Shown here: positions 1,608 to 20,000 of the stretch, in pieces
Layout of the letters: every line of letters begins with the position of its first letter
How positions within the stretch are numbered: position 1 is the first letter of the stretch
Assembly: GCF_004010195.1 (NCBI RefSeq)
Contig: NC_057718.1
Coordinates: forward strand, 45,103,717 to 45,123,716
Direction of reading: 5' to 3'
Source: Chiloscyllium plagiosum
Taxonomy: Eukaryota
DNA: 20,000 nucleotides
Position numbers and translations under genes: made by a program
The notes under the pieces: model-generated
Seen by the model: only the letters and a program-made list of their open reading frames with translations
Database searches by the model: none
Told to the model about the DNA's origin: nothing

Positions 1608-1837
1608 AACATATGAACATAGGAGCAAGAATAATTTATTCAGCTCCTCTATAGAACCATGGAATCATCAAAAAGTTACAGCGCAGTAAGAATCCATTCA
1701 ACTCATCATGTCTGTGCTGGCTAAAAAATAACTTGTAAGGATGTCAACCCCTCCAATACTTGTTCTTGAATTCTGCTTATTGTACCTATTCTCACAGTCC
1801 TACTCCAACTAGAACACCTGTGTCGTCCCTTTACTTT
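1608..1837 (-). mobile_element. Old CR1 fragments (3' ends and ORF2 remnant), left flank of the large Penelope-like insertion
   Basis: acatatgaacataggagcaaga and catggaatca...ccattcaactcatcatgtctgtgctggct resemble reverse-complemented CR1 3' tails. The sequence appears to continue at 4412 after the target-site duplication. Confidence 0.5.
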
Positions 1838-1935
1838 AGGAGAACGTGAGGCCTTCAGATGCTGGAAATCAGAGTTGAGAGTGTGGTGCTGGAAAAGCAC
1901 AGCAGGTGAGGCAGAATCCAAGGAGCAGGAGAATC

Positions 1936-1963
1936 AACGTTTCAGGCATAAGCCCTTCATCAG
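1936..1963 (-). ncRNA. Minimal hammerhead-ribozyme-like motif in the PLE 3' terminal region
   Basis: Minus strand reads CTGATGA-A-GGGC-TTAT-GCCT-GAAA-C-GTT: core CUGANGA, stem II, GAAA and an NUH triplet. Helix I is weak; activity is untested. Confidence 0.6.
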
Positions 1964-2183
1964 GAGTAAGGCTTGTGAGCCAAGGCGGGGGGGGGGAGAG
2001 ATAAATNNNNNNGGGGGGGTGAAGCTTGGGGAAGGCAGCTGAGAATGCGATAAGTAGATGAAGGTGGGGGAAAAGGTGATCGGTTGGACAGGAGGGTGGA
2101 GCGGATAAATGGGAAAGACGATGGACAGGTCAAGAGGGCCGTGCCAGGTTGGAGGTGTGGAACTGGGATAAGATGGGGGGGAG

Positions 2184-3243
2184 CAGAAATGAGGAAACTG
2201 GCAAAATCCACATTAATCCCATGTAGTTGTAGGTTCCCAAGGCAGAAGATGAGGCGTTCTTCCTCCAGGCGTAGGGCGGTGAGGGTTTGGCAATGGAGGT
2301 CCAGGACCCGCATGTCCTTGGTAGAGTGGGAGGGGGAGTTGAAGTGTTCAGCCATGGAGCAGTGGGGTTGGTTGGTGTGGGTGTCCCAGGGATGTTCTCT
2401 GATACAATCTGCAATTTGGCGTCCTGTCTCCCCAATGTAGAGGAGACCACATCGGGTGCAATGGATAAGCAGTGGAGGTACAGGTAAATTTTTGTCAGTT
2501 GTGGGAGGATCTTTTGGGGCCTTGGATGGAGGTGAGGGGGGAAGTTTGGGTACAAGTTTTGCATTTCCTGCAGTGGCAGGGGAAAATGCCAGGAGTGGGG
2601 TGAGGCCTGGTAGAGGGCATGGATCTGACAAATGAGCCGCGGAGGGAATGGTCTCTCCAAAATGCTGATAGAGGTGGGGAGGGAAATATATCCCCAGAGA
2701 TGGTGATGGAGAGCTCCATGAAGGGGAGGGAGGTGTCTGAGATGATCCAGGTGAATTTGAGGTTGGGGTGAAAGGTGTTAGTGAAGTTGATGAACTGTTC
2801 AACCTCCTTGGAGCACGAAGTAGCACAATACAGTTATCAATGTAGTGGAGGAAAAGTTGCGGGATGGTGCCGGTGTAGCTGCGGAACATAGACTGTTCCA
2901 CGTACCCAACAAAGAGGCAGGCGTAGCTGGGGCCCATGCAGCCAGGCAGATATAGGGTAGGGTACTTGTTGGGATAGTGTGACAGGAAGAAAAGGAGGGT
3001 TTGGAGGCCTTCATCATGGCGGATAGATGTGTACAGGGACTGGATATCCAGGGTGAAGATAAGGCGTAGGGGGCCGGGGAAACAAACATCTTGGAGGAAG
3101 TGAAGGACATGAATGGTGTCCCAAATGTAGGTGGCGAGTTCCTGGACTAAGGGGGAGAGGATGGCATCAAGGTATGCAGAAGTGAGTTCAGTGGAACAGG
3201 AGAAGGCCGAGACAATGGGTCAATCGGGAAAGTCGGGTTTGTG
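2184..3243 (-). pseudogene. Disrupted PLE reverse transcriptase + GIY-YIG endonuclease ORF
   Basis: Motifs in shifting frames: HKPDFPD*PIVSAFSCSTELTSAYLDAILSPLVQ, RLIFTLDIQSLYTSIRHDEG, MGPSYACLFVGYVEQ...FLHYIDNCI (decayed YIDD), PGIFPCHCRKCKTC, CTRCGLLYIGETGRQIADCIREH, EEERLIFCLG. There are stops, frameshifts and internal deletions near 2940 and 2693. Confidence 0.92.
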
Positions 3244-3249
3244 GGCCCA

Positions 3250-4080
3250 CCTCCCACCCTATCTTCTGTAAAAACGCCATCCCCTATTCCCAATTCCTCC
3301 ACCTCTGCTGCATCTGTTCCCAGGATGGCCAATTCCACCAGAGAAAATCCCAGATGGCCGCCTTCTTCAAAGATCGCAATTTCCTCTCCCAAGTGGTCAA
3401 TGATGCCCTCCAGCGCATCTTCTCCACTTTCTGCACCTCCGCCCTTGAACCTCATCCCTCCCAATGCAACAAGGAGAGAATCCCCTAGTCCTCACCTTCC
3501 ACCCCACCAACCACTTATACATCGCATTATCCTATGCCACTTCCACCACCTACAAACAGACCCCACTGCTAGGGATTTATTTCCATCCTCACCCTTATCA
3601 GTGTTTTGGACAGTCCATTCCTTCCGCGACTCACTTGTCAGATCCACGTTCCCACACAAGCCCTCAACCCACTCCCGGTACCTTTCCCTGCCACTGCAGA
3701 AAGTGCAAAACCTGCACCCACACTTCCCCCCTCATCTCCGTCCAAGGCCCCAACGGATTCTTCCATATCCAACAGAAATTTACCTGTACCTCCACTAATG
3801 TCATCTACTGGATTTGTTGCACCCGATGTGGTTTCCTCTACTTCGGGGAAACAGGACGCCAACTTGCAGATTGTTTCAGAGAACATCTCTGGGACTCCTG
3901 CACTAACCAACCCTATTGGCTGAACACTTAAACTCCCCCTCCTACCCCACCAAGGACATGCAGGTCCTGGGTCTCCTCCATTGCCAAATGACGCATGGAG
4001 GAAGAATGCTTCATCTTCCGCCTTGGGATCCTACAACCACACGGGATTAATTAGGATTTCATCAGTTTCCTCATTTCCGC
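3250..4080 (+). pseudogene. Disrupted PLE RT thumb, Cys-rich linker and GIY-YIG endonuclease
   Basis: SHPIFCKNAIPYSQFLHLCCICSQD, PLVLTFHP, PGTFPCHCRKCKTC, FTCTSTNVIYWICCTRCGFLYFGETGRQLADCFREH; multiple frameshifts. Confidence 0.92.
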
Positions 4081-4411
4081 TCCCCCAACCTTATCTCAGT
4101 CCCAAACCTCCAACTCTGCACTGCCCTCTTAACCTGTCATTGTCTTTCCCAAACATCAGCTCCACCCACCTCTCCAACCTATCACCTTCTCCCCCACCTT
4201 CATCTACCTATCGCATTCTCAGCTACCTTCCCCCAAGCCCCATCCCCTCCCATTTATCTCTCAGCCACGCCACTACCTCCTCCCCAACAGCCCACAAGCT
4301 TCATGCCTGATGAAGGGCTTACGCTCAAAATATCAATTCTCCTGTTCCTCGGATGCTGCTTGACCTGCTGTACTTTTCCAGCACCACACTCTCAACTCAT
4401 CCCTTTCCTTT

Positions 4412-5120
4412 CCAAAAGAGATAAAGCATTCATTAAGAATTGCGACCACATCTTCTTCATCCATGCAGAAATTACGTATTCAGTACATCTTTGATCAGCC
4501 CAATCTTTCCTTAGTCATCCCCTTGCTCTTAATACACTGAAAAAGCATCTTGATGTTTTCCTTGATTTTACCTGCCTATGTTTTCCATATCCTCTCTCTG
4601 CTTTCCTAATTTCCTGTACTTTCTATACTCCTAAAGGCTTTTAACAGTATTAAGCTTTCTGCTCATTCATTTTCAGCTTTATCTTACCTGTTATTTTTGT
4701 GTATGTTTAACCAGAAGGATCTAGATTTGGAGGTACCTTTTTTTTCTTTCTGGAGAAATATTTGTGCTGTATCTGTAGAATCACACTTTTGAATGTCTGC
4801 CACTAATTTGTCACTGCTTTTCCTTCAATCAGCTGTATCCAGTCCATCTCAGCTTCATAAGGTTTGTCTTACCCAATGCAGAATGTTGTCTTACCCAATG
4901 TTGTATCTTTGCACTTTTCCACAATGATGCTAAATCTGTCTGTCTGATGGTTACTCTATCCAAAATGGTCACCCACTGCAACTTCATTCCCTAAGACTAA
5001 ATCCAGAATTGTGCACCCTCTCATTGGGCTTGTTATGGCCGAGCTAAAAAAAATTCTCTTTAATACTGTTCAAGAATCTCATGTCCTGTGTGCCTTTCAC
5101 ACTGATCATGTCCTAGTTGA
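4412..5120 (-). mobile_element. Old CR1 ORF2 remnant (APE endonuclease C-terminal part and linker)
   Basis: Minus strand at ~5035-4915 translates to SPMRGCTILDLVLGNEVAVGDHFG*SNH (LDL and SDH-type motifs of the LINE endonuclease). 4412-4640 resembles the CR1 region at 19450-19700. Confidence 0.7.
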
Positions 5121-5273: not shown

Positions 5274-5378
5274 ATTACCACAGTGACTATATTTAAATAC
5301 TCAATAGCATTATGACAGTGACTAAATTTAAATACTCAATAGCATTACGACAGTGACTATATTTAAATGCTCAATAGC
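5274..5378 (+). repeat. 35-bp tandem repeat x3, within a probable decayed L2/DeuSINE-type 3' tail (~5265-5425)
   Basis: cagtgacta(t/a)atttaaat(a/g)ctcaatagc recurs at 5281, 5316 and 5351 (period 35, no unique spacers). It is followed by ataaagtgctttgagac...gtgct, resembling a recalled L2-like tail. Confidence 0.85.
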
Positions 5379-6183: not shown

Positions 6184-6790
6184 GTGATGATGCTGCTCCT
6201 TTAACAAGGTTGTCTTTTCTTTTCCCCCAAGAGGGATCATAAAGGCAGAGGTGCAGATATGTCTGAACTGGCTACTTTAATAATGACTAACAGATACTGC
6301 GAAAATCAACAATCAGAGGAGACCTTTAGGGTTTGTTTTTAAAACACATACAATGAAAGGGGAGTAGCCAGTTCTGGATTTGTTTAGTTTTAGCTGGGGA
6401 CCCAGAGAAGCTGCTGGGGCAAAAATAAAGGTTCTATGTTTCAGTCAATGATTTCTCTCTGGAATCTCTCTCTCTTCTAACAACTTGTGTTTGAATTAAC
6501 CTTTTTGCCAAGGGGTATGTTTATGCAGGAAATGGGAAGTTTTTTTGTTAAGTTAGATCATGTTGGTCGGGTTTTCATATAGTTGTTTTTTTTTTAAATT
6601 CTGTTTTCTTTTGCTTGTGTTTCATTTGGTAGTCTGTAAATAAATTTTGGTTTTTTTTAAAAAAGGAGTGATTTAACCAGCTGCACCATTCCTGGAATAT
6701 CCACACTGCACCTGCTTAAAACAACTAGAAAATTTAAGGTCTGGACTAAATACTTGAAATGTTTCGAGGGGGTTTGGCCTGGTCCATATT
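6184..6790 (+). mobile_element. Probable decayed solo LTR interrupting the LINE
   Basis: About 600 bp of non-coding insert between collinear LINE pieces. It has an AATAAA near 6639 and degenerate ends (gtgatgatg.../...ggtccatatt). No clean TG..CA termini or TSD were seen. Confidence 0.4.
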
Positions 6791-6812
6791 GTAAACACAG
6801 AGGATCTGAAAT

Positions 6813-6973
6813 AAAGTGCTGGAAAATCTCAGCAGGTTTGGCTGCATCTGTGGAGAAAAATACAGAGCTAATCTTTCAAATCCAATAACTCACCTTAAAA
6901 GCATTGGACTTGAAACACTCCACAAATGCTGCCACACCTGCTAGATTTTCCAACATTTTCTGTGTTTTTTTTT
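6813..6973. mobile_element. Old palindromic repeat related to PLE termini (distinct subfamily)
   Basis: aaagtgctggaaaatctcagcaggtttggctgcatctgtggag is inversely repeated as ctccacaaatgctgccacacctgctagattttccaacatttt. It shares the gctggaaaa..cagcaggt..ggcagcatc motif with the younger PLE palindromes. Confidence 0.7.
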
Positions 6974-8857: not shown

Positions 8858-8990
8858 CTGGAAAAACACAGCAGGTCAGGCAGCATCCGAGGAACATGAT
8901 GTTGCAGCACAGCTCCTCGGATGCTGACTTACCTGCTGTGCTTTTCCAGCACTACACTCTTGACTCTGATCTCTCGTCCTGACTTTCTCC
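8858..8990. mobile_element. Short palindromic PLE-terminus insertion, tail on the right
   Basis: Arm 8858-8893 is inversely repeated at 8914-8949 around a 20-nt unrelated spacer. The right side continues into a partly deleted tail (ctctgatctc...gtcctgactttctcc). It is too truncated to include the hammerhead core. Confidence 0.8.
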
Positions 8991-9046
8991 TTCACATTAC
9001 AAGAACAACATAACCATACAGCTAGCAGACACAGGGACCTGACAAA

Positions 9047-9348
9047 GACGCAGCACAGTGGCTCAGTGGTTTGCACTGCAGCCTCACAGCACCAGGATTC
9101 CAGGTTCGATTCCAGCCTTGGGTGACTGTGTGTGGAGTTTGCACATTCTCCCCGTGTCTGCATGGGTTTCCTCCGGGTGCTTAGATTTCCTCCCACAGTT
9201 CAAAAATGTGCAAGTCAGGTGAATTGGCCATGCTAAATTGCCCGTAGTGTTAGTCAGAGGGAAATGGGTCTGGGTGGTTACTCTTCGGAGGGTCGGTGTG
9301 GACTGGTTGGGCCGAAGGGCCTGTATCCACACTGTAGGGGATCTAATC
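9047..9348 (+). mobile_element. HE1-like V-SINE (tRNA-derived)
   Basis: A box TGGCTCAGTGG 9059-9069, B box GGTTCGATTCC 9103-9113, V domain tgtggagtttgcacattctccccgtgtctgc.tgggtttcctccggg, and a CR1-type tail gggccgaagggcctgt.tccacactgta. Confidence 0.92.
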
Positions 9349-11246: not shown

Positions 11247-11455
11247 GATGTTTTCACTTGGAATTAAGCTGCAAACTTGGCTGATTATTTGCAGTTCTTG
11301 ACCTTGGACATTAGTAAGGTGTACCATATGTGCAAACGTTAAGTCGGGAAATTATCTTCCAGGTTTCAGTGATTGATAAAACCACAGAAACAAGTTGGCA
11401 ATTATAATGATCTTGATCTTTTTCATTCCATAGGCATGTGATTGAATAAACTCAC

Positions 11456-12040
11456 CCTTTTTAACAATATGTGGAAGACCCTCTGGTTCTGATGGAGATT
11501 TATCTTTTGCAACAGGCCTTAAAATATTCTCATGCTCTTTATCACTTCTTGTCCTCTTTGCAGAATTCTGCAAAGCTTCTGATTTCAATTTATCTCGTTC
11601 CTCCTTAGATTCTGCTCCCCTTACTCTCTTTGCAGTAAGGTTTGATTGAGCATCTGGGCGCTTTTGGTGACTTTTGTTTCCAACTAATTCCAATGGAGCA
11701 TCCATGGTCTGATCTGCAATATTGCACACACTTGGAGACTTCAGATATTTTTGCTGACTCTTGGACTGACCAGGTGACTTCTTTTCACACTTGTGTACAA
11801 GTGATCTTGGTACAGCAACTTGTTCGGCAATACCATTCTCATCTTGAGCATTTGACTGTTGGAATTTATTGCTCAAGAAGACCACCCTGCTCTTTAACAT
11901 TTCATTTTCCTCCTGCAGTTTGTGGCTGCTTTTAATCAGGTTCCAATATTTCTCCATATTTTCGTCAGCTTCTTTTGTTTTTTCCTCTAGTGCCTCTTTT
12001 AGTTTCTCCACCTCAGTTGTTTGGTCATCTATCTGTGAAT
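11456..12040 (-). CDS. CENPF: Centromere protein F coding exon (DSQIDDQTTEVEKLKEALEEKTKEADE...EPEGLPHIVKKG)
   Basis: Acceptor tcttgtccag, donor AAGG|gtgagt, 585 nt, phase 1 to 1. LEEKTKEADE..KY and EPEGLP.(I/V)VKKG match vertebrate CENP-F. Confidence 0.95.
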
Positions 12041-12544
12041 CTGGACAAGACATTAAAATTATTAATCTATGAACACCTTACAAAGATTGAATAAAATCAG
12101 TGTTATGGCAAGCTAAGTGAATTTTATAACCATTGTTAAATTTGATTTGCCTAAACTTTATCATTCATAACACTCATCTATAAATAGGTCAGGTCCTGTT
12201 ATCATCTCATTTTAATCATTTGGCACAGTGCTGGTTAAAGAAAATATACTTGTGATGGTGAACAAATAAATATACTTCTATGTTAAAATTTAAGTTCAGA
12301 TAGAAAATAAAGAAGAAAATGTGTCTGTATGATGCAGTTGCCACTTATAAAACTTGAAATTCAAAATAAAAATTCAAATGATTATGAGGTATTAAAAATT
12401 GTTGTTGAGAATATACATAACAAGGGTTATGGTATAGATAAATTAATTTTTGAGCAGCAAGATGAAGGACTACAAAACAGATTCATTTTGCAATCTTCCT
12501 TACTAAGGATAGAAATACTAACATGATCGAAAAGATACCAAAGG

Positions 12545-12740
12545 AAAAGAATGCAGTGCAACTTTTAACAAGCTTTTTTTCAGAAAACATTTGAAGGAAT
12601 AGTATCCCTTTGTTCCTCAAATGCAATGTCAGTAATTTTTTCCAAAAGAATGCAGTGCAGTTTTTAAAGTTATTTTTAGAAAAGTGAGTGAAGGAATAAT
12701 ATGCAATAATATACCCTTTGTTCCTCGAATACAATGTCTG
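12545..12740 (+). repeat. Local imperfect tandem duplication, ~99-bp period
   Basis: aaaagaatgcagtgca...tgaaggaata...ccctttgttcctc.aat.caatgtc occurs twice (~12545-12631 and ~12644-12740). Confidence 0.85.
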
Positions 12741-13165
12741 AAAAGATTTCCAAATTGCAGCAGCGCAAATCTTTGCATCTCATAATCAGTCAAGAATGAT
12801 TGCTACTAGAATAGTCCATGTAATGTCAACATGTGACAAATTTTGGGTAATTTTCTGTTGTGAATGAATATAATATATAATATATAATTTAATTTTTAAG
12901 CTCAGAATTTCTTTGAAAGAATAGATGTCATTGTTTGCACAATTATGAAAAATATTGTTCAGTAAAGCAAATTACAAGTTATGATTAGGAAGGAGTCAGG
13001 CAGAAGTTAGCAGATGTTTTAATTAGTCCAAAATAAATTAACTAGTTCAAAGGATGAACTAAACCATCTGCATTACTTGCACATTTTGTTTGAACTGACA
13101 AACGTTAGTTGAATTTCGCTCATTTTCTTTAGTTCAAATGCTGGATTCATCTACTGTCTACTTAC

Positions 13166-13343: not shown

Positions 13344-14640
13344 CTAAAAAATCGTCATTGATAAAAAATTCTTCAATAATTGTTTAGGTACTTTTATTTT
13401 CCAAATAAATGTGTTCATTCAAGTTTGTAAACCATTTAATAACTTCTTAGATATTAAAAAAAAATTCTCTCCTTCCTAGGCTCAAGAAAATCACATGATG
13501 AAGAATAGAACTAGAATTAATCTCAAAACACTTTAAAAAGCATCTAGGTAGAGCTTTTTCCCAAGTAAACTTTATTCTTAAAATTTGTAAAAGTTATATA
13601 CAAACATTTTGACTTGAAAATTCAATGTCAAAATACAGCAGGTTCCATTTTTATGTGTCTCAATACAACTTTCGGCCCAATTATCTGTTTCTTTCAATCT
13701 ATTCCTATTCATAAAGAATAAATTAATCTCCAGTTAATGTATTACATTGCATACAACTGTATACAATTAATTACAATTAGTTCACAGCAGAGGTGGGTCA
13801 TGAAGTGCTGCAATTCAGCATTTATATACAGTACTTGATAAAAGTTTATAGAGGAAGTACTGAAATGACATTGGTTCAAATGCTAATAGATCACAGTCCA
13901 GCAGCAGGGAGAGGCGCCTTTTGGCCCAAACTGATCTGTGCCGACCAATATGTCCATCCACACTAACTCCATTTCCCTGCACTTGGCCCATATACTTCTA
14001 AACCTTTCCTGTCCAAGCATTTGTTCAAATGCCTTTTAAATATTGTTAATGGACCCACATCAACCACCCCTCTGCTGGCAGCTCATTCCATACACGTACC
14101 ACCCTCTATGTAAACAGGTTGCCCCTCAGGTTCCCATTTATTCTTTCCCCTCTTACCTTAAACTGATGCTCTCTAGTCCTCGAATCCCCAACCTTGGGAA
14201 AAAGACTGAGAGTATTCAAACTATCCATGCCTCTCATGATCTTATACAATTCTATTAGATCCCCTCTCAGTCTCCTATTCTCTAAAGAAAAAAGTCCTAA
14301 CTTGTCCAACCTCTCCCTCTAACTCAGTTCATGAAGTTCTGGCAACATCCCGGTAAATGTCTTCTGCATTCTTTCCAGTTTAATAACAACCTTCCTACAG
14401 CAAGGTGACCAAACGAACACAATACTCCCCCAGTGCAGCCTCACCAATGTCCTGTACAACTGCAACATAATTTCCCAACTTCTATACTCAAATCCCTGAA
14501 TGATTCAGGCCAGTATGCCAAAAGCCTTCTTCACTACCTTTGAGGAAAAAGTGAGGTCTGCAGATGCTGGAGATCAGAGATGGAAATGTGTTGCTGGAAA
14601 AGCGCAGCAGGTCAGGCAGCATCTAGGGAACAGGAGAATC

Positions 14641-14668
14641 GACGTTTCGGGCATTAGCCCTTCTTCAG
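14641..14668 (-). ncRNA. Minimal hammerhead-ribozyme-like motif (mirror copy, on the CENPF sense strand)
   Basis: Minus strand reads CTGAAGA-A-GGGC-TAAT-GCCC-GAAA-C-GTC. Confidence 0.6.
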
Positions 14669-14674
14669 CCATTC

Positions 14675-14702
14675 CTGAAGAAGGGCTAATGCCCGAAACG
14701 TC
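14675..14702 (+). ncRNA. Minimal hammerhead-ribozyme-like motif
   Basis: CTGAAGA-A-GGGC-TAAT-GCCC-GAAA-C-GTC: intact core, perfect 4-bp stem II, loopless palindromic ACGT helix III and a GUC triplet. Confidence 0.65.
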
Positions 14703-15706
14703 GATTCTCCTGTTCCCTAGATGCTGCCTGACCTGCTGCACTTTTCCAGCAACACATTTCCATCTTCTTCACTACCTTGTCTATCCGTGACTCCACTTTC
14801 AAAGAACCATGCACCTGAACGCCAAGGTCCTTCTGTTCCACTACATTCCCGAAGGACCTACCTCTCACCATGAAACTCCTACCTTGATTTGACTTTCCAA
14901 AATGCAACACCTTACACTTATATACATTAAACTCCATTTGCCATTTCTCAGCCCACTTCCCCAGCTGATCAAGGTTCTGCTGCAATTTCTAATAACCTTC
15001 CTCACTGTCCTCGATGCTGCCTGTGTTAGTGTCATTTGCAATGTGCTAAGCTTTTCAGTTCGTTGCCCAGAGATTGCAAACAATTAATTAGCCCGAGTGC
15101 TTGTTTGTAAACATGTCACATTCACTATATTAGAATATGCATGATCGTGGGCACTAGGAAGGATTATTTAGTATAAGCCTTTTCCAGTAATTGTGAACAG
15201 AGGAAAGCTAGAGAAAGAGACGGGCGGTCAGATTTTTATTTTTAAAAATCACTGCAAATGTGACCCTCTATAGGCTTCAAAACAGAATGGAACTGGGGAA
15301 AAATATTTTGATAAAGCAGGACAATTCTGTTATTTGTAGTAGGTAGCATTTTCACTCCTTTGTACTATTACATATCATTCTAATCATCTAGTAAATCTGA
15401 TAATACTTTCTGCTCTTTACAATTGCAAACATTAAAATTAAACTATTTTGCGTTTCTTTTCTGTTCCTGTTTACTGAACAGGTGCATACTTCCAATGAGA
15501 ATATCCAGGTCAAATCATACCCTTGAGTTAGACTATTGTACAATGTTTTTATTGGGCAGCATGCACATTAAACTAAAGGTATGCCTGTCAGATTTGTATA
15601 GCATTAAAACCCTGAACTATTTGAACACTTGTCTGTGGTCTGTTTACATCAATAGAAGTCTTAAGTGTAGAAATAAGCTGCTATCCAGACTTCACTTAAG
15701 TTTTAC

Positions 15707-15844
15707 CTTGCAGATGGCATCTTTTAAGGTAACATTTATTTCTTCTTTTGCAGCTTTTAGGTTGTTCATTTCTATTTCTTGTTCAGTTAGCTGTTTCTGC
15801 ATTCCAGCCAATCTTTTTTCATCCAGCTGCATTTGAACATCATG
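15707..15844 (-). CDS. CENPF: Centromere protein F coding exon (HDVQMQLDEKRLAGMQKQLTEQEIEMNNLKAAKEEINVTLKDAICK)
   Basis: Acceptor aatttgttag, donor AAG|gtaaaa, 138 nt, phase 0 to 0, coiled-coil. It resembles the recalled human LEIDLLKSSKEELNNSLK segment. Upstream exons are presumably beyond the window. Confidence 0.85.
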
Positions 15845-17766
15845 CTAACAAATTAAATGGAGTATTTATAATTAGTAAGGAAGTATTCGTCTTTGGGTTA
15901 AATACGAACAAAATTCTCTGAAATAAACACTGATAAAGTAAAAGCAAAAAAAAAGTTACTTATAACAAAATTTTCATGATTCTGTCCAATTTGGAACGGA
16001 TATTGGTGAGCTTTAAAAATGACAGTCAGGACCCATTTCATGGTCTCTGCCCACATCCACAATTTTTAGCCACACAGGGTAAGGGTACAGGAATAAAGCC
16101 TACACATAGCATTCCTGACCTCGGCAGCTCCATTGCAAATGTGGGCATTTCAAACCCTGAATTTTAATGAAAGTCAAGCCAGCTTTTTAAGATATAGTCA
16201 TGGCAGCTCAGAGAAGTTGTGAACTGTAAAGGATATTTGGTCTGGTACAGGGTATCTTTTAACAAGTAAGTTTCAACGCTATTACTAATTTCACATGTCA
16301 TAATTCTGTATGTTGAATCTGTTTAGAATGCAGCAATTGATGATGCTCTTAAAACTGACCATTAATCTGACCTTCGTGATGAGAGTAGAAAAATGTTCCA
16401 ATACTTTACATTACATTATCTAATATATAAAGTGCATTGGACAGTACTGTTATTCAGATGTGACTGTATCAATTGTTCCTTGTAATTTAAAGTTTCCGTT
16501 ACTTGACAGCTCTGACATCTCTGCTTCTGCTTTAAACTGTTAGCAGCTGACTGAGCTTTTTCATTGTCAGCTTAGTCATCTGTTTCACCTAGTTTATACT
16601 TTGACGACATGGTTCAACACTTTCATTGAATTTGAAAGCCTTAGTGTATTCAGCTCCATAGGTTTTGTTTATACAGATGGGCTATGCAATTCTATATGAG
16701 TGCTCGGATAGGTTCTAAATGTCAGAAATGGATTCAGCCGATGAGGGGTTGTTGTCACAGCTCTTAAGGGAAATGCAATTTTATTCAGCTTATAGGTTTA
16801 GGTCTACTTTGTAGGAATCTTTGTCTTGAAATGGTTGTTAGTTTTACCACCACAGATGACTGAATGATTTTGTTTTGAGAGTTTAAGAGCATCACAAAGA
16901 TTTTCCAATAGTACTGCAGGGCTCAAAGGTTATATATAATGGATGCAGAGGGAATGGCCATGAAAGTGATGGATATGGGTGAGAGGATGTGGTTGAGTGT
17001 TATGGAGAGGATGGCAGGGGAAGCAAGGTTGGTAGCTTGACACTCAGCTACCAAGTTGGACAGATGTTACAGGGGACTGAGGGAGGTCTTCTAACCTGAC
17101 AGCATTGGCATTTGTCCACCTCCATTTCTTCCTCAGGTTTGCTTTATGAGGCGGAGTTCCTGACTCCAGCCAACCTCCCCTGTGATGAAAATAATGTGGG
17201 TAGTATTGTCTGGCAGGATGCAGATTCTTTTTGTTGAGAAATGGCTTGACTCATGATTAATACCTCAAAGTTTTGAATTTGGGCACTAATCTTAATTGAG
17301 AATCCAATCCATTACAAACTTAATGTAATCAATGCAACAATTGTTATAGTGATTTAATTTTGATAATCAATCAACTGTGAACATTCTTGTTTAACAAACC
17401 CTTCAATGTGTTATTTAACAAAGATCCCTTTCTTTGGGCCATGACTTAAAAATGTTTTTTGTACCTTTCCACTCAATCTCATTAACATTCTGCTTAAGTC
17501 CTAAAAACATCAAAGACCCAAAATATACATCATCCATGTGGAAAAGCTTACTTTTCTATCAAAGAACAAGAAACATAGCTTCACTCTGGGAAACCATCAA
17601 AATTGCATGTCTATGTGCAGTTATTGCCAGGACCTGCCAACCAGAACAAGCAATATGCAAATTCAGATCTAGGTTAAAGGTTAATTACTTCCCACAATCA
17701 CACAGCAAGTGCCTGCAACACCAGTAAGATGCACAATTAGGTACTCAATTTTAGCAATATTGTAGA

Positions 17767-19775
17767 ACAGACAATAGACAATAGATGCAGGAGTAAGCCA
17801 TTCTGCCCTTCGAACCAGCACCACCATTCAGTATGATCATGGCTGATCATCCTCAATCAGTATCCTGTTCCTGATTTATCCCCATAGCCTTGATTCCACT
17901 ATCCTTAAGACCTCTATCCAACTCTTTCTTGAAAGTATCCAGAGACTTGGCCTCCACAGCCTTCTAAGCAGAGCATTCCATACACCCACCACTCTCTGGG
18001 TGAAGAAGTTTCTCCTCAACACTGTTCTAAGTGGCCTACCCCTTGTTTTTAAACTGTGTCCTTTGGTTCAGGACTCACCCATCAGCAGAAACATGTTTCC
18101 TGCATCCAGAGTGTCCATTCCTTTAATAATCTTATACGTCTCAATCAGATCCCCTCTCAGACTTCTAAACTCAAGCGTATACAAGCCCAGTCGCTCCCAA
18201 TCTTTCAGTGTAAGGTAGTCCTGCCATTCAGGGAATTGACCTCGTGAACCTACGCTGCACTCCCCCAGTAGCCAGAATGTCTTTCCTCAAATTTGGAGAC
18301 CAAAACTGCTCACAATATTCCAGGTGCGGTCTCACCAGGGTCTTATACAGCTGCAGAAGGACCTCTTTGCTTCTATACTCAATTTCTCTTGTTATGAAGG
18401 CCAGCATGCTATTAGCTTTCTTTACTGCCTGCTGTACCTGATGCTTGCTTTCATTGACTGATGTACAAGAACACCTAGGTCTCGTTGTATTACCCCTTTA
18501 CCTAACTTGACTCCATTTAGGTAGTAATCTGCCTTCCTGTTCTTTCCACCAAAGTGTATAACCATACATTTATCCACATTAAACTGCATCTGCCTTGCAT
18601 TTGTCCACTCACCTAGCCTGTCCAGGTCACCCTGTAATCTCCTAACATCCTCCTCACATTTCACCCTGCCACCCAGCTTTGTATCATCAGCAAATTTGCT
18701 AATATTACTTTTAATACCTTCATCTATATCATTAATGTACATTGTAAAAGCTGCGGTCCCAGCACTGATCCCTGCGGCACACCACTGGTCACTGCCTGCC
18801 ATTCCGAAAGAGAACAGTTTATCACTACTCTTTGTTTCCTGTCAGCCAACCAATTTTCAATCCATGTCAGTATTTTGCGCCTAATACCATGTGCCCTAAT
18901 TTTGCTCACTAACCTCCTATGTGGGACTTTATCAAAGGCTTTCTGAAAGTCCAGGTATACTACATCCACTGGATCGCCCTTGTCCATCTTCAGAGTTACA
19001 TCCTCAAAAAATTCCAGAAGATTAGTCAAGCATGAGTTCCCCTTCATAAATTCATGCTGACTCTGACCTATCTTGTTACTGCTATCCAGATGTGTCGTAA
19101 TTTCATCCTTTATAATTGACTCCAGCATTTTTCCCACCACTGAGGTCAGACTAACTGGTCTATAATTCTGTTTTCTCTCTCCCTCCTTTCTTAAAACATA
19201 GGACAACATTATCCACTCTCCAATCCACAGGAACTGATCCTGAATCTATAGAACATTGGAAAATGATCACCAATGCATCCACGATTTCTAGAGCCACCTC
19301 CTTCAGTACCCTGGGATGCAGACCATCAGGTCCCGGGGACTTATCAGACTTCAGACCTAACAGTCTCTCCAACACCATTTCCTGCCTAATATAAATTCCC
19401 TTCAGTTCAGGTCCTTCAGCCACTATTACATCTGGGAGATTAGATCTGTCTTCACTGAGGAAGACACGAGCAAAGTACCAATTCAACTCTTCTGCCATTT
19501 CTTTGTTCCCTGTAATAAATTCACCCGTTTCGGTCTTCAAGGGCCCAATTTTAGTCTTAACCATTTTTTTCCTTTTCACATACCTAAAAAAGCCTTTACT
19601 ATCCTCCTTTATATTTTTGGCCAGTTTACCTTCGTACCTTATTTTTTCTTTGCGTATTACCTTTTTAGTTATCCTCTGATGTTCTTTAAAAGCTTCCCAG
19701 TCCTCCAATTTCCCACTCATCTTTGCTATGTTATACTTTTTCCCTTTTGTCTTTATATGGTCCTTAACTTCCCTT
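17767..19775 (-). mobile_element. CR1 LINE, relatively young, frameshifted ORF2 (RT domain), in a CENPF intron
   Basis: KSPGPDGLHPRVLKE, NYRPVSLTSVVGKMLE, VYLDFQKAFDKVPH, SGVPQGSVLGP, SKFADDTKLG across three frames. The 3' tail carries (TCTATTG)n-like repeats at ~17767-17785. Confidence 0.97.
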
Positions 19776-20000
19776 GGGGAGAAAGTGAGGGCTGCAGATG
19801 CTGGAGATCAGAGCTGAAAATGTGTTGCTGGAAAAGCGCAGCAGGTCAGGCAGCATCCAAGGAACAGGAGAATCGACGTTTCAGGCATAAGCCCTTCTTA
19901 CTTTCCTCATTCCTGAAGAAGGACTTATGCCCAAAACGTCGATTCTCCTGTTCCTTGGATGCTGCCTGACCTGCTGCGCTTTTCCAGCAACACATTTTCA
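19776..20000. mobile_element. Young palindromic PLE-terminus insertion in CR1; runs off the window end
   Basis: Tail ggggagaaagtgagggctgcagatgctggagatcag, then arms 19815-19899 / 19916-20000 (85 bp, 3 mismatches, two at one CpG), 16-nt spacer. The hammerhead core at 19913-19940 has GAAA>AAAA. Confidence 0.92.

Follow-up and report, generated by a model that had tools for sequence, protein, structure and literature searches.

Organization of the large inverted element

The stretch of DNA analysed here, referred to as the window, comprises 20,000 nucleotides of the Chiloscyllium plagiosum genome (NC_057718.1, positions 45,103,717 to 45,123,716 of the forward strand). It contains a large inverted element at positions 1838-4398, which is almost certainly an inverted insertion of a Penelope-like element (PLE), together with several short hairpins. 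The large element consists of two 5'-truncated PLE copies which point outward by their 3' ends, lie within one target site duplication (TSD) and carry a tail at one end only. We infer that such a layout is best explained by priming of complementary DNA (cDNA) from both ends of the cut target. The following features make up the large element and its surroundings (positions are those of the window):

1647-4700, minus strand: host long interspersed nuclear element (LINE), CR1-like; the flanks 1647-1837 and 4412-4700 are collinear remnants, which align weakly and with gaps to the paralogue at 19245-19740
1823-1837, plus strand: left TSD copy, 15 bp, TCGTCCCTTTACTTT
1838-1871, minus strand: PLE tail, 34 nt, at the left end only, with no right-side counterpart
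1872-3245, minus strand: left arm, 1374 bp, 5'-truncated PLE copy with the reverse transcriptase (RT) core from the HKPD motif, GIY-YIG and the 3' region
1936-1963, minus strand: predicted minimal hammerhead core of the left arm (pattern scan; CTGATGA, 4-bp helix II, GAAAC), with the cleavage triplet decayed to GTT
2212-2695, minus strand: linker with CX4CxxC and GIY-YIG endonuclease of the left arm, frameshifted
2690-3243, minus strand: RT fingers/palm remnant of the left arm, with stops and a frameshift
3241-3250, no strand: head-to-head junction, 10-bp palindrome GTGGGCCCAC, centre 3245/3246
3246-4398, plus strand: right arm, 1153 bp, more deeply truncated, tail-less PLE copy with thumb, linker and GIY-YIG (3249 to about 4051) and the 3' region
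4307-4334, plus strand: predicted minimal hammerhead core of the right arm (pattern scan), decayed
4397-4411, plus strand: right TSD copy, TCATCCCTTTCCTTT, whose first 2 nt are shared with the arm end

The TSD copies TCGTCCCTTTACTTT and TCATCCCTTTCCTTT are identical at 13 of 15 positions and formed the top-scoring pair of the search box, with a score of 9; among 298 random flank pairs, none did as well. The last two nucleotides (TC) of the right arm, which extends to 4398, are the first two of the right TSD copy, and the outer end of the tail (1838) is in register with 14543, the commonest element end in raw reads. The TSD, the left-only tail and the 2-nt overlap on the right had all been described in the initial annotation, correctly at the level of single bases. 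In inverted orientation, 1872-2697 aligns with 4398-3569 over 855 columns (78.7% identity including gaps), with 129 mismatches among 799 ungapped columns (84% identical), 12 gap events and a Kimura two-parameter distance of 0.185. The copy is dead and old, with about 9% change per arm. Six N at 2007-2012, within a G run of the left arm, represent a small assembly gap.

Coding content and family assignment

A homologue search with the right-arm frame 3449-3928 as query found 1,708 relatives, and the named homologues among the eight looked up came from skate, gar and whale shark. In a Pfam scan of 10 homologues, GIY-YIG was found in all of them and RVT_1 in eight, mostly under the Pfam cut-off; eight decayed frames of the element itself gave no Pfam match. 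Both arms map in order by tblastn onto 11 long homologues, which combine RT with a GIY-YIG domain at the C-terminus in one open reading frame (ORF). The left arm begins at the HKPD motif of RT (residue 309 of homologue P0002) and the right arm at residue 548 of the same protein, in the C-terminal thumb region, without the RT core. The initial annotation had seen two outward-pointing, 5'-truncated RT/GIY-YIG copies; orientation and truncation stand, but this mapping places the RT core in the left arm only. Frameshifts are present in both arms, and the left arm has internal deletions of about 33 codons near 2975 and of about 127-140 codons near 2695. At the breakpoints of the larger deletion (2695-2700) there is a 5-nt GGGAT repeat, which fits either a template jump of RT or a later microhomology deletion.

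Common to both arms are the linker FPCHCRKCKTC (CX4CxxC), a CCHH motif and a motif expected of endonuclease-bearing PLEs (YWICCTRCGFLYFGET in the right arm, IHCTRCGLLYIGET in the left), followed by REH and EHFN/EHLN. According to passages of PMC8557442, a CX2-5CxxC linker between RT and endonuclease (EN) marks Neptune/Nematis and is absent from Penelope/Poseidon. Because both arms carry the CX4CxxC linker, the sequence points to a Neptune/Nematis-type element and not to Penelope/Poseidon. Judged from motifs and homologues, every feature tested was that of an EN-containing (EN+) PLE.

The predicted hammerhead core lies about 65 nt from the tail-less end in each large arm. Its pattern occurs in both of these arms and in both arms of the hairpin at 14541, with 12 weaker pattern matches elsewhere. 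An Rfam scan gave no hammerhead match, only matches to microRNA (miRNA)-type hairpins below the cut-off. Folding of the element terminus revealed nothing beyond shuffled sequences in seven of seven cases (z -0.74 to 1.55) and no stem-loop at the start sites, and exact scans of viral, genome and metagenome collections for the terminal motif returned 0 loci.

Short hairpins of the window

Four shorter inverted structures accompany the large element:

14526-14778, no strand: young hairpin insertion, with TSD 14526-14540, tail 14541-14577 (37 nt), left arm 14578-14668, right arm 14670-14765 and TSD 14764-14778
19776-20000, no strand: second young hairpin, cut by the window end, with a tail from about 19776, left arm 19811-19899 and right arm from 19900
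8858-8996 (about), no strand: older hairpin tailed on its right side, with shorter arms lacking the hammerhead core; no TSD found
6786-6970 (approximate bounds), no strand: very old hairpin of a more distant family, no TSD found

The hairpin at 14541-14765 lies within a CR1-like LINE; its TSD copies are identical at 15 of 15 positions, its arms differ at one of 91 sites, and it shows a 37-nt tail and a 2-nt overlap. The arms of the 19776 hairpin are identical at 82 of 85 sites. In both, the tail-less arm extends further upstream than the tailed arm, by about 5 nt (14541) and about 16 nt (19776), and the extension in the latter agrees with the raw-read consensus of the element. Their centres differ in position. 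The 8858 and 6786 hairpins have one tail-like extension each, and the full layout of TSD, one-sided tail and overlap occurs in two of the four complete window elements. The initial annotation had given the large element the same architecture as the 225-bp palindromes; this was confirmed in every particular for 14541-14765 (15-bp TSD, 37-nt tail, 2-nt overlap). The two older hairpins, at about 8858-8996 and 6786-6970, showed no TSD above chance.

Short, palindromic, high-copy and TSD-flanked sequences of this kind resemble MITEs (miniature inverted-repeat transposable elements) or foldback transposons, and the hairpins might be such a DNA transposon family, moving as a unit by a mechanism unrelated to that of the large element. 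Near-perfect palindromes of similar size (arms 90/91 and 82/85 identical), a very high copy number and truncation points clustered near the hammerhead would suit such a family. The hairpins differ from it in having neither a fixed length nor a fixed centre, as seen from 14541 against 19776 and from many distinct joints in the reads; they have unequal ends, a 15-bp TSD and a hammerhead core, and in the large element the same sequence runs on into the RT/GIY-YIG ORF. The MITE reading is thereby largely refuted, and we regard it as highly improbable. The evidence instead supports regarding the hairpins as ends of PLEs, which arose as short products by the process that also made the large element. 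The initial annotation had preferred PLE products to DNA transposons for the same structures, and this is borne out by variable centres and arm lengths, the hammerhead core, the 15-bp TSD and discrete tailed and tail-less ends; the fixed arm lengths and 2-9-bp TSDs that it would have expected of a DNA transposon were not found, centres being variable, the TSD 15 bp long and the tail one-sided and 37 nt long.

The hairpins at 14642-14701, 19831-19985 and 8868-8940 match plant and animal miRNA families in Rfam with low E-values, far below the gathering scores. Such hairpins, scoring miRNA-like in Rfam and resembling MITEs, are a trap for annotation. Three PLE inserts reside in CR1-like LINE remnants, and two decayed CR1-like LINE copies were identified on the minus strand, at 17847-19775 (RVT_1, E 2e-23) and 14040-15083 (RVT_1, E 2e-5). 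The target ends beside the tails (1837, 14540 and 19775) all finish in TT.

Element ends and empty sites in raw reads

Reads from four public runs were aligned to 13900-15300 only, at an identity threshold of 85%. In run X19, 14543 is the end point of 13,106 reads, the flanks of which are unrelated (agreement 0.34), and a further 8,616 reads stop at 14584, where the consensus has a few extra element letters (agreement 0.40), which places the real end near 14577. From these two classes of reads, with the extra letters taken into account, it follows that the element has two ends about 34 nt apart genome-wide. Tail depth amounted to 0.47-0.62 of arm depth, as a crude estimate, and contig runs of organisms A, B and C showed the same end at 14543. 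Before the tail, the read consensus is AT-rich and in each of the four runs closes with ACT, which may reflect a preference in target choice or in priming. Left-arm breakpoints ranged from 14566 to 14634 among the 15 joints listed (there were 1,388 further joints), and 15,991 and 9,630 reads continue beyond the hammerhead into one upstream consensus (agreement 0.76 and 0.56). The density of arm ends is about 37 per Mb at an identity of at least 85%, or about one per 27 kb, as calculated from a depth of 72,514 over one position of an arm plus the mirror position, in 1,934 million letters.

When the 14541 insert and one TSD copy were removed, a gap-free junction with a paralogous LINE was obtained, the score being 265.5 with one TSD copy, 258 with two and 237 with none, and 143 raw reads of LINE paralogues skip from 14491 to 14764, where the right TSD copy begins. 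Two other joints, 14535-14778 and 14535-14787, were rejected as empty-site evidence, since they derive from paralogues of the LINE and, to the base, are not consistent with one TSD copy. Organisms B and C are about 96% alike to A. The large element, with arms 84% alike, is too old for an empty site to be expected there.

One insertion event or two

The simplest reading of the large element is one old insertion event, although this falls short of proof. In the last 92 nt, both of its arms have six sites in common which are absent from all four young arms, and the divergence of the TSD (2/15) is in line with that of the arms. Differences between the arms by codon position (24/16/22 over 143 codons; ratio of nonsynonymous to synonymous rates 0.74; Fisher P 0.29) are as for decay after insertion.

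The arms could also have been inserted separately, or come from two different source elements, at one site or next to it; a later inversion between neighbouring copies is another possibility. Arms just 84% identical with 12 gap events, in a family as dense as about one arm end per 27 kb, would be compatible with such a history, which we nevertheless consider improbable: a single TSD encloses both arms with none at the junction, its divergence and the six diagnostic sites fit a common origin, the third-position excess is not significant, and the young hairpins and an unrelated PLE, L019, have the same layout.

An independent case in metagenome contigs

Among 80 related PLE loci from metagenome contigs, 15 contain an inverted repeat of at least 40 nt. 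L019 has an exact 16-bp TSD (score 12; none of 40 random pairs scored above 9), a one-sided tail of 50-56 nt and an overlap of 2 exact nucleotides (6/8). Its tail is element sequence, because L017 carries it. The tailed arm is short and contains only the endonuclease, and the tail-less arm is long and includes RT. In L079, of the same family as L019, the inverted arm ends at most 4 nt from the end in L019, and the partner arms start at different places (n=2, same metagenome). This near-shared arm stop (L019:2137-2780 and L079:1-216) may point to a constant 5' end in a source RNA whose terminal repeat is 600 nt long. TSD-like matches in L002, L021 and L074 (scores 8-9) were rejected as chance level, given that four of 40 random pairs score at least 8, and that in L037 belongs to a repeat. 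L012 has a 129-bp inverted end, for which a TSD was not found.

Proposed priming from both ends of the target

Double priming from both target ends is, in our opinion, the best mechanism and a reasonably probable one. The GIY-YIG endonuclease would nick the two strands at positions about 13-16 nt from each other and so create a pair of 3' overhangs, which later become the TSD; cutting and extension of both target strands have been seen in vitro for the Anolis PLE (PMC11167929). Each 3'-OH would prime its own cDNA on element RNA, one at an outer start site and the other at an inner start site 34-37 nt upstream, possibly aided by about 2 nt of pairing, and the stretch between the two sites would give the one-sided tail. 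If both 3' overhangs of the staggered cut prime cDNA, the outcome is a TSD bordered on either side by a 3' end of the element. The cDNAs, templated either by two RNAs or by the two terminal repeats of one partial-tandem RNA, would end at variable points and presumably be joined head to head, followed by repair fill-in, and the two primings would presumably be simultaneous. Long cDNAs would yield the 2.56-kb element, and short ones halting near the hammerhead would yield the hairpins of 140-230 bp.

The Anolis enzyme begins reverse transcription internal to the template 3' end, at two sites; the intervening stretch forms the tail, and a dimer has been predicted (PMC11167929). By analogy, the two read-defined ends may be the start sites of reverse transcription in the shark family. 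The initial annotation had placed one of the two starts at the RNA's 3' end, which, in view of the two internal sites, is probably wrong.

The principal rival is self-priming or fold-back, in which the 3' end of a single target-primed cDNA folds back or switches template to copy the first strand, and endonuclease resolution leaves the one-sided tail (PMC3846280 and, in part, PMC8557442). A copy of this kind would suit the large element, where the right arm could have been copied from the left if the thumb deletion in the left arm came later. Palindromes at inverted junctions have been published (PMC3846280), as has the origin of the tail by EN-mediated resolution (passages of PMC8557442). The arms of the 14541 and 19776 hairpins and of L019, however, are not nested, each holding element sequence that the other lacks; therefore each arm needed the RNA, and a second visit to it was required. 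Fold-back is disfavoured for these three because a copy cannot hold sequence that its template lacks. In addition, the 14541 and 19776 centres were inspected and showed no palindromic seed like that at 3241-3250, the tail ends match the in vitro start sites of reverse transcription, and the junction palindrome of the large element may be two arm ends and 3 filler nucleotides. Overall, we judge fold-back rather unlikely. The large element alone cannot separate it from double priming, because the part unique to the right arm may have been deleted from the left arm later. Of the double-primed retrotransposition put forward in the initial annotation, the single PLE insertion is supported, and double priming is the probable mechanism, the evidence for it against fold-back coming from the non-nested arms of 14541, 19776 and L019.

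Several observations weigh against one insertion by double priming. The 10-bp palindrome exactly at the junction, of a type found at only one of 2,450 other arm positions, is the expectation of the published self-priming model. Start sites are used alike on both strands in vitro (PMC11167929), which leaves the strict pairing with one tail unexplained, and the in vitro element belongs to the Penelope/Poseidon clade, to which the shark element does not appear to belong. The full layout was found in just one of the 80 related loci (L019), and TSD searches at about 8858-8996 and 6786-6970 gave best scores of 4 and 3, not above chance. Among the listed contigs of organisms A, B and C, none spans the 14541 hairpin as an orthologous empty site, and the paralogous-LINE proxy for the large element, although best with one TSD copy (105 versus 102.5 and 100.5), barely discriminates. 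The codon test has little power: the LINE-paralogue control showed 46 third-position differences among 103 (P 0.014), but 29 among 69 (P 0.08) on a shorter frame-checked stretch.

A more specific proposal, which we put forward tentatively and hold at somewhat less than even, is that a dimeric RT-endonuclease as a rule primes both overhangs at once with fixed roles of an outer and an inner protomer, resulting in one tail per insertion, the short arm often being a run-off of the 5' terminal repeat of the RNA. Hints for fixed roles are the single tail in all four complete window elements and L019, and the inverted-arm stops of L019 and L079 within 4 nt of each other (n=2). If true, self-priming would no longer serve to explain the inverted repeats of PLEs, and a great many MITE-looking hairpins of shark-like genomes (tens of arm ends per Mb) would be single-step retrotransposition scars, each built anew.

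Comparison with known systems

The layout and most of the mechanism are already published, and the nesting argument remains of interest. An inverted copy with a one-sided 30-40-nt tail and a TSD has been described (PMC3846280; passages of PMC8557442 and PMC8969392), and a passage of PMC3681739 reports long inverted Penelope copies. The present element resembles EN+ PLEs with an inverted pseudo-long terminal repeat (pLTR) and tail (Arkhipova 2013, PMC3846280; in part, Craig 2021, PMC8557442) in that a 5'-truncated inverted copy stands beside the main copy, a tail of 30-40 nt marks one end, the unit lies within one TSD and a palindrome occurs at the inverted junction. It differs from them in the TSD (8-10 bp in the published elements, 15 here and 16 in L019), in the truncation of both arms and in the absence of a direct pLTR; the hairpins, in which either arm measures about 50-100 nt, represent the extreme case.

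PAc, the Poseidon element of Anolis carolinensis (Frangieh 2024, PMC11167929), is similar in having two starts 30-40 nt apart which define the tail, cutting and extension of both strands, a hammerhead upstream of the start sites and AT-rich targets. It is a member of the Penelope/Poseidon clade, and no homology between cut DNA and start site was reported for it, in contrast to the 2-nt overlaps here. The main text of PMC11167929 does not trace inverted insertions back to double priming, and in it the later steps are left open; that these need further work is stated there and in passages of PMC8557442. The literature searches listed no paper that ties short shark hairpins to double priming; such structures may already be present in supplementary figures S1-S2 of PMC11167929.

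Unlike in L1, the same 3' region is present in both arms here, and the arms begin at two fixed sites. In L1 twin priming, the second primer lands at internal sites that vary, and there is no overlap between the two parts of the product. The likeness to L1 twin priming (PMC2837659) is that both ends of the staggered cut prime cDNA, which results in an inverted, truncated product within one TSD. Passages of Cervera and De la Pena (2014, PMC4209133) describe minimal hammerheads in PLE terminal repeats and as solo motifs; the likeness lies in the minimal type-I-like core with a short palindromic helix III, its presence in each arm and a genome-wide occurrence far beyond full elements, and in these passages head-to-head hairpins and sharks are not described. 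A 2026 retrozyme preprint, in the part considered, concerns tandem arrays, not hairpins.

Taken alone, the locus is an ordinary PLE insertion that is no longer alive; its value is as a test case for inverted copies and one-sided tails. With about 37 arm ends per Mb, tails and arm nesting can be counted in numbers sufficient to decide between double priming and fold-back.

Other features of the window

Two coiled-coil exon-like frames lie on the minus strand at 11352-12077 and 15560-15860, the former weakly matching the Rb-binding domain of CENP-F (E 0.045, below the cut-off). The two frames probably belong to the 3' part of CENPF, in which case the 14541 hairpin would lie in one of its introns. 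On the plus strand, opposite to these exon-like frames, a coiled-coil-like frame with one in-frame stop follows an AG acceptor-like site at 465-745. The region 9045-9300 we take to resemble a tRNA-derived shark short interspersed nuclear element, and ARAGORN found no tRNA in it. Finally, a 35-bp sequence is repeated three times in tandem at 5274-5378, and a degenerate repeat of about 100 bp is located at 12545-12767.

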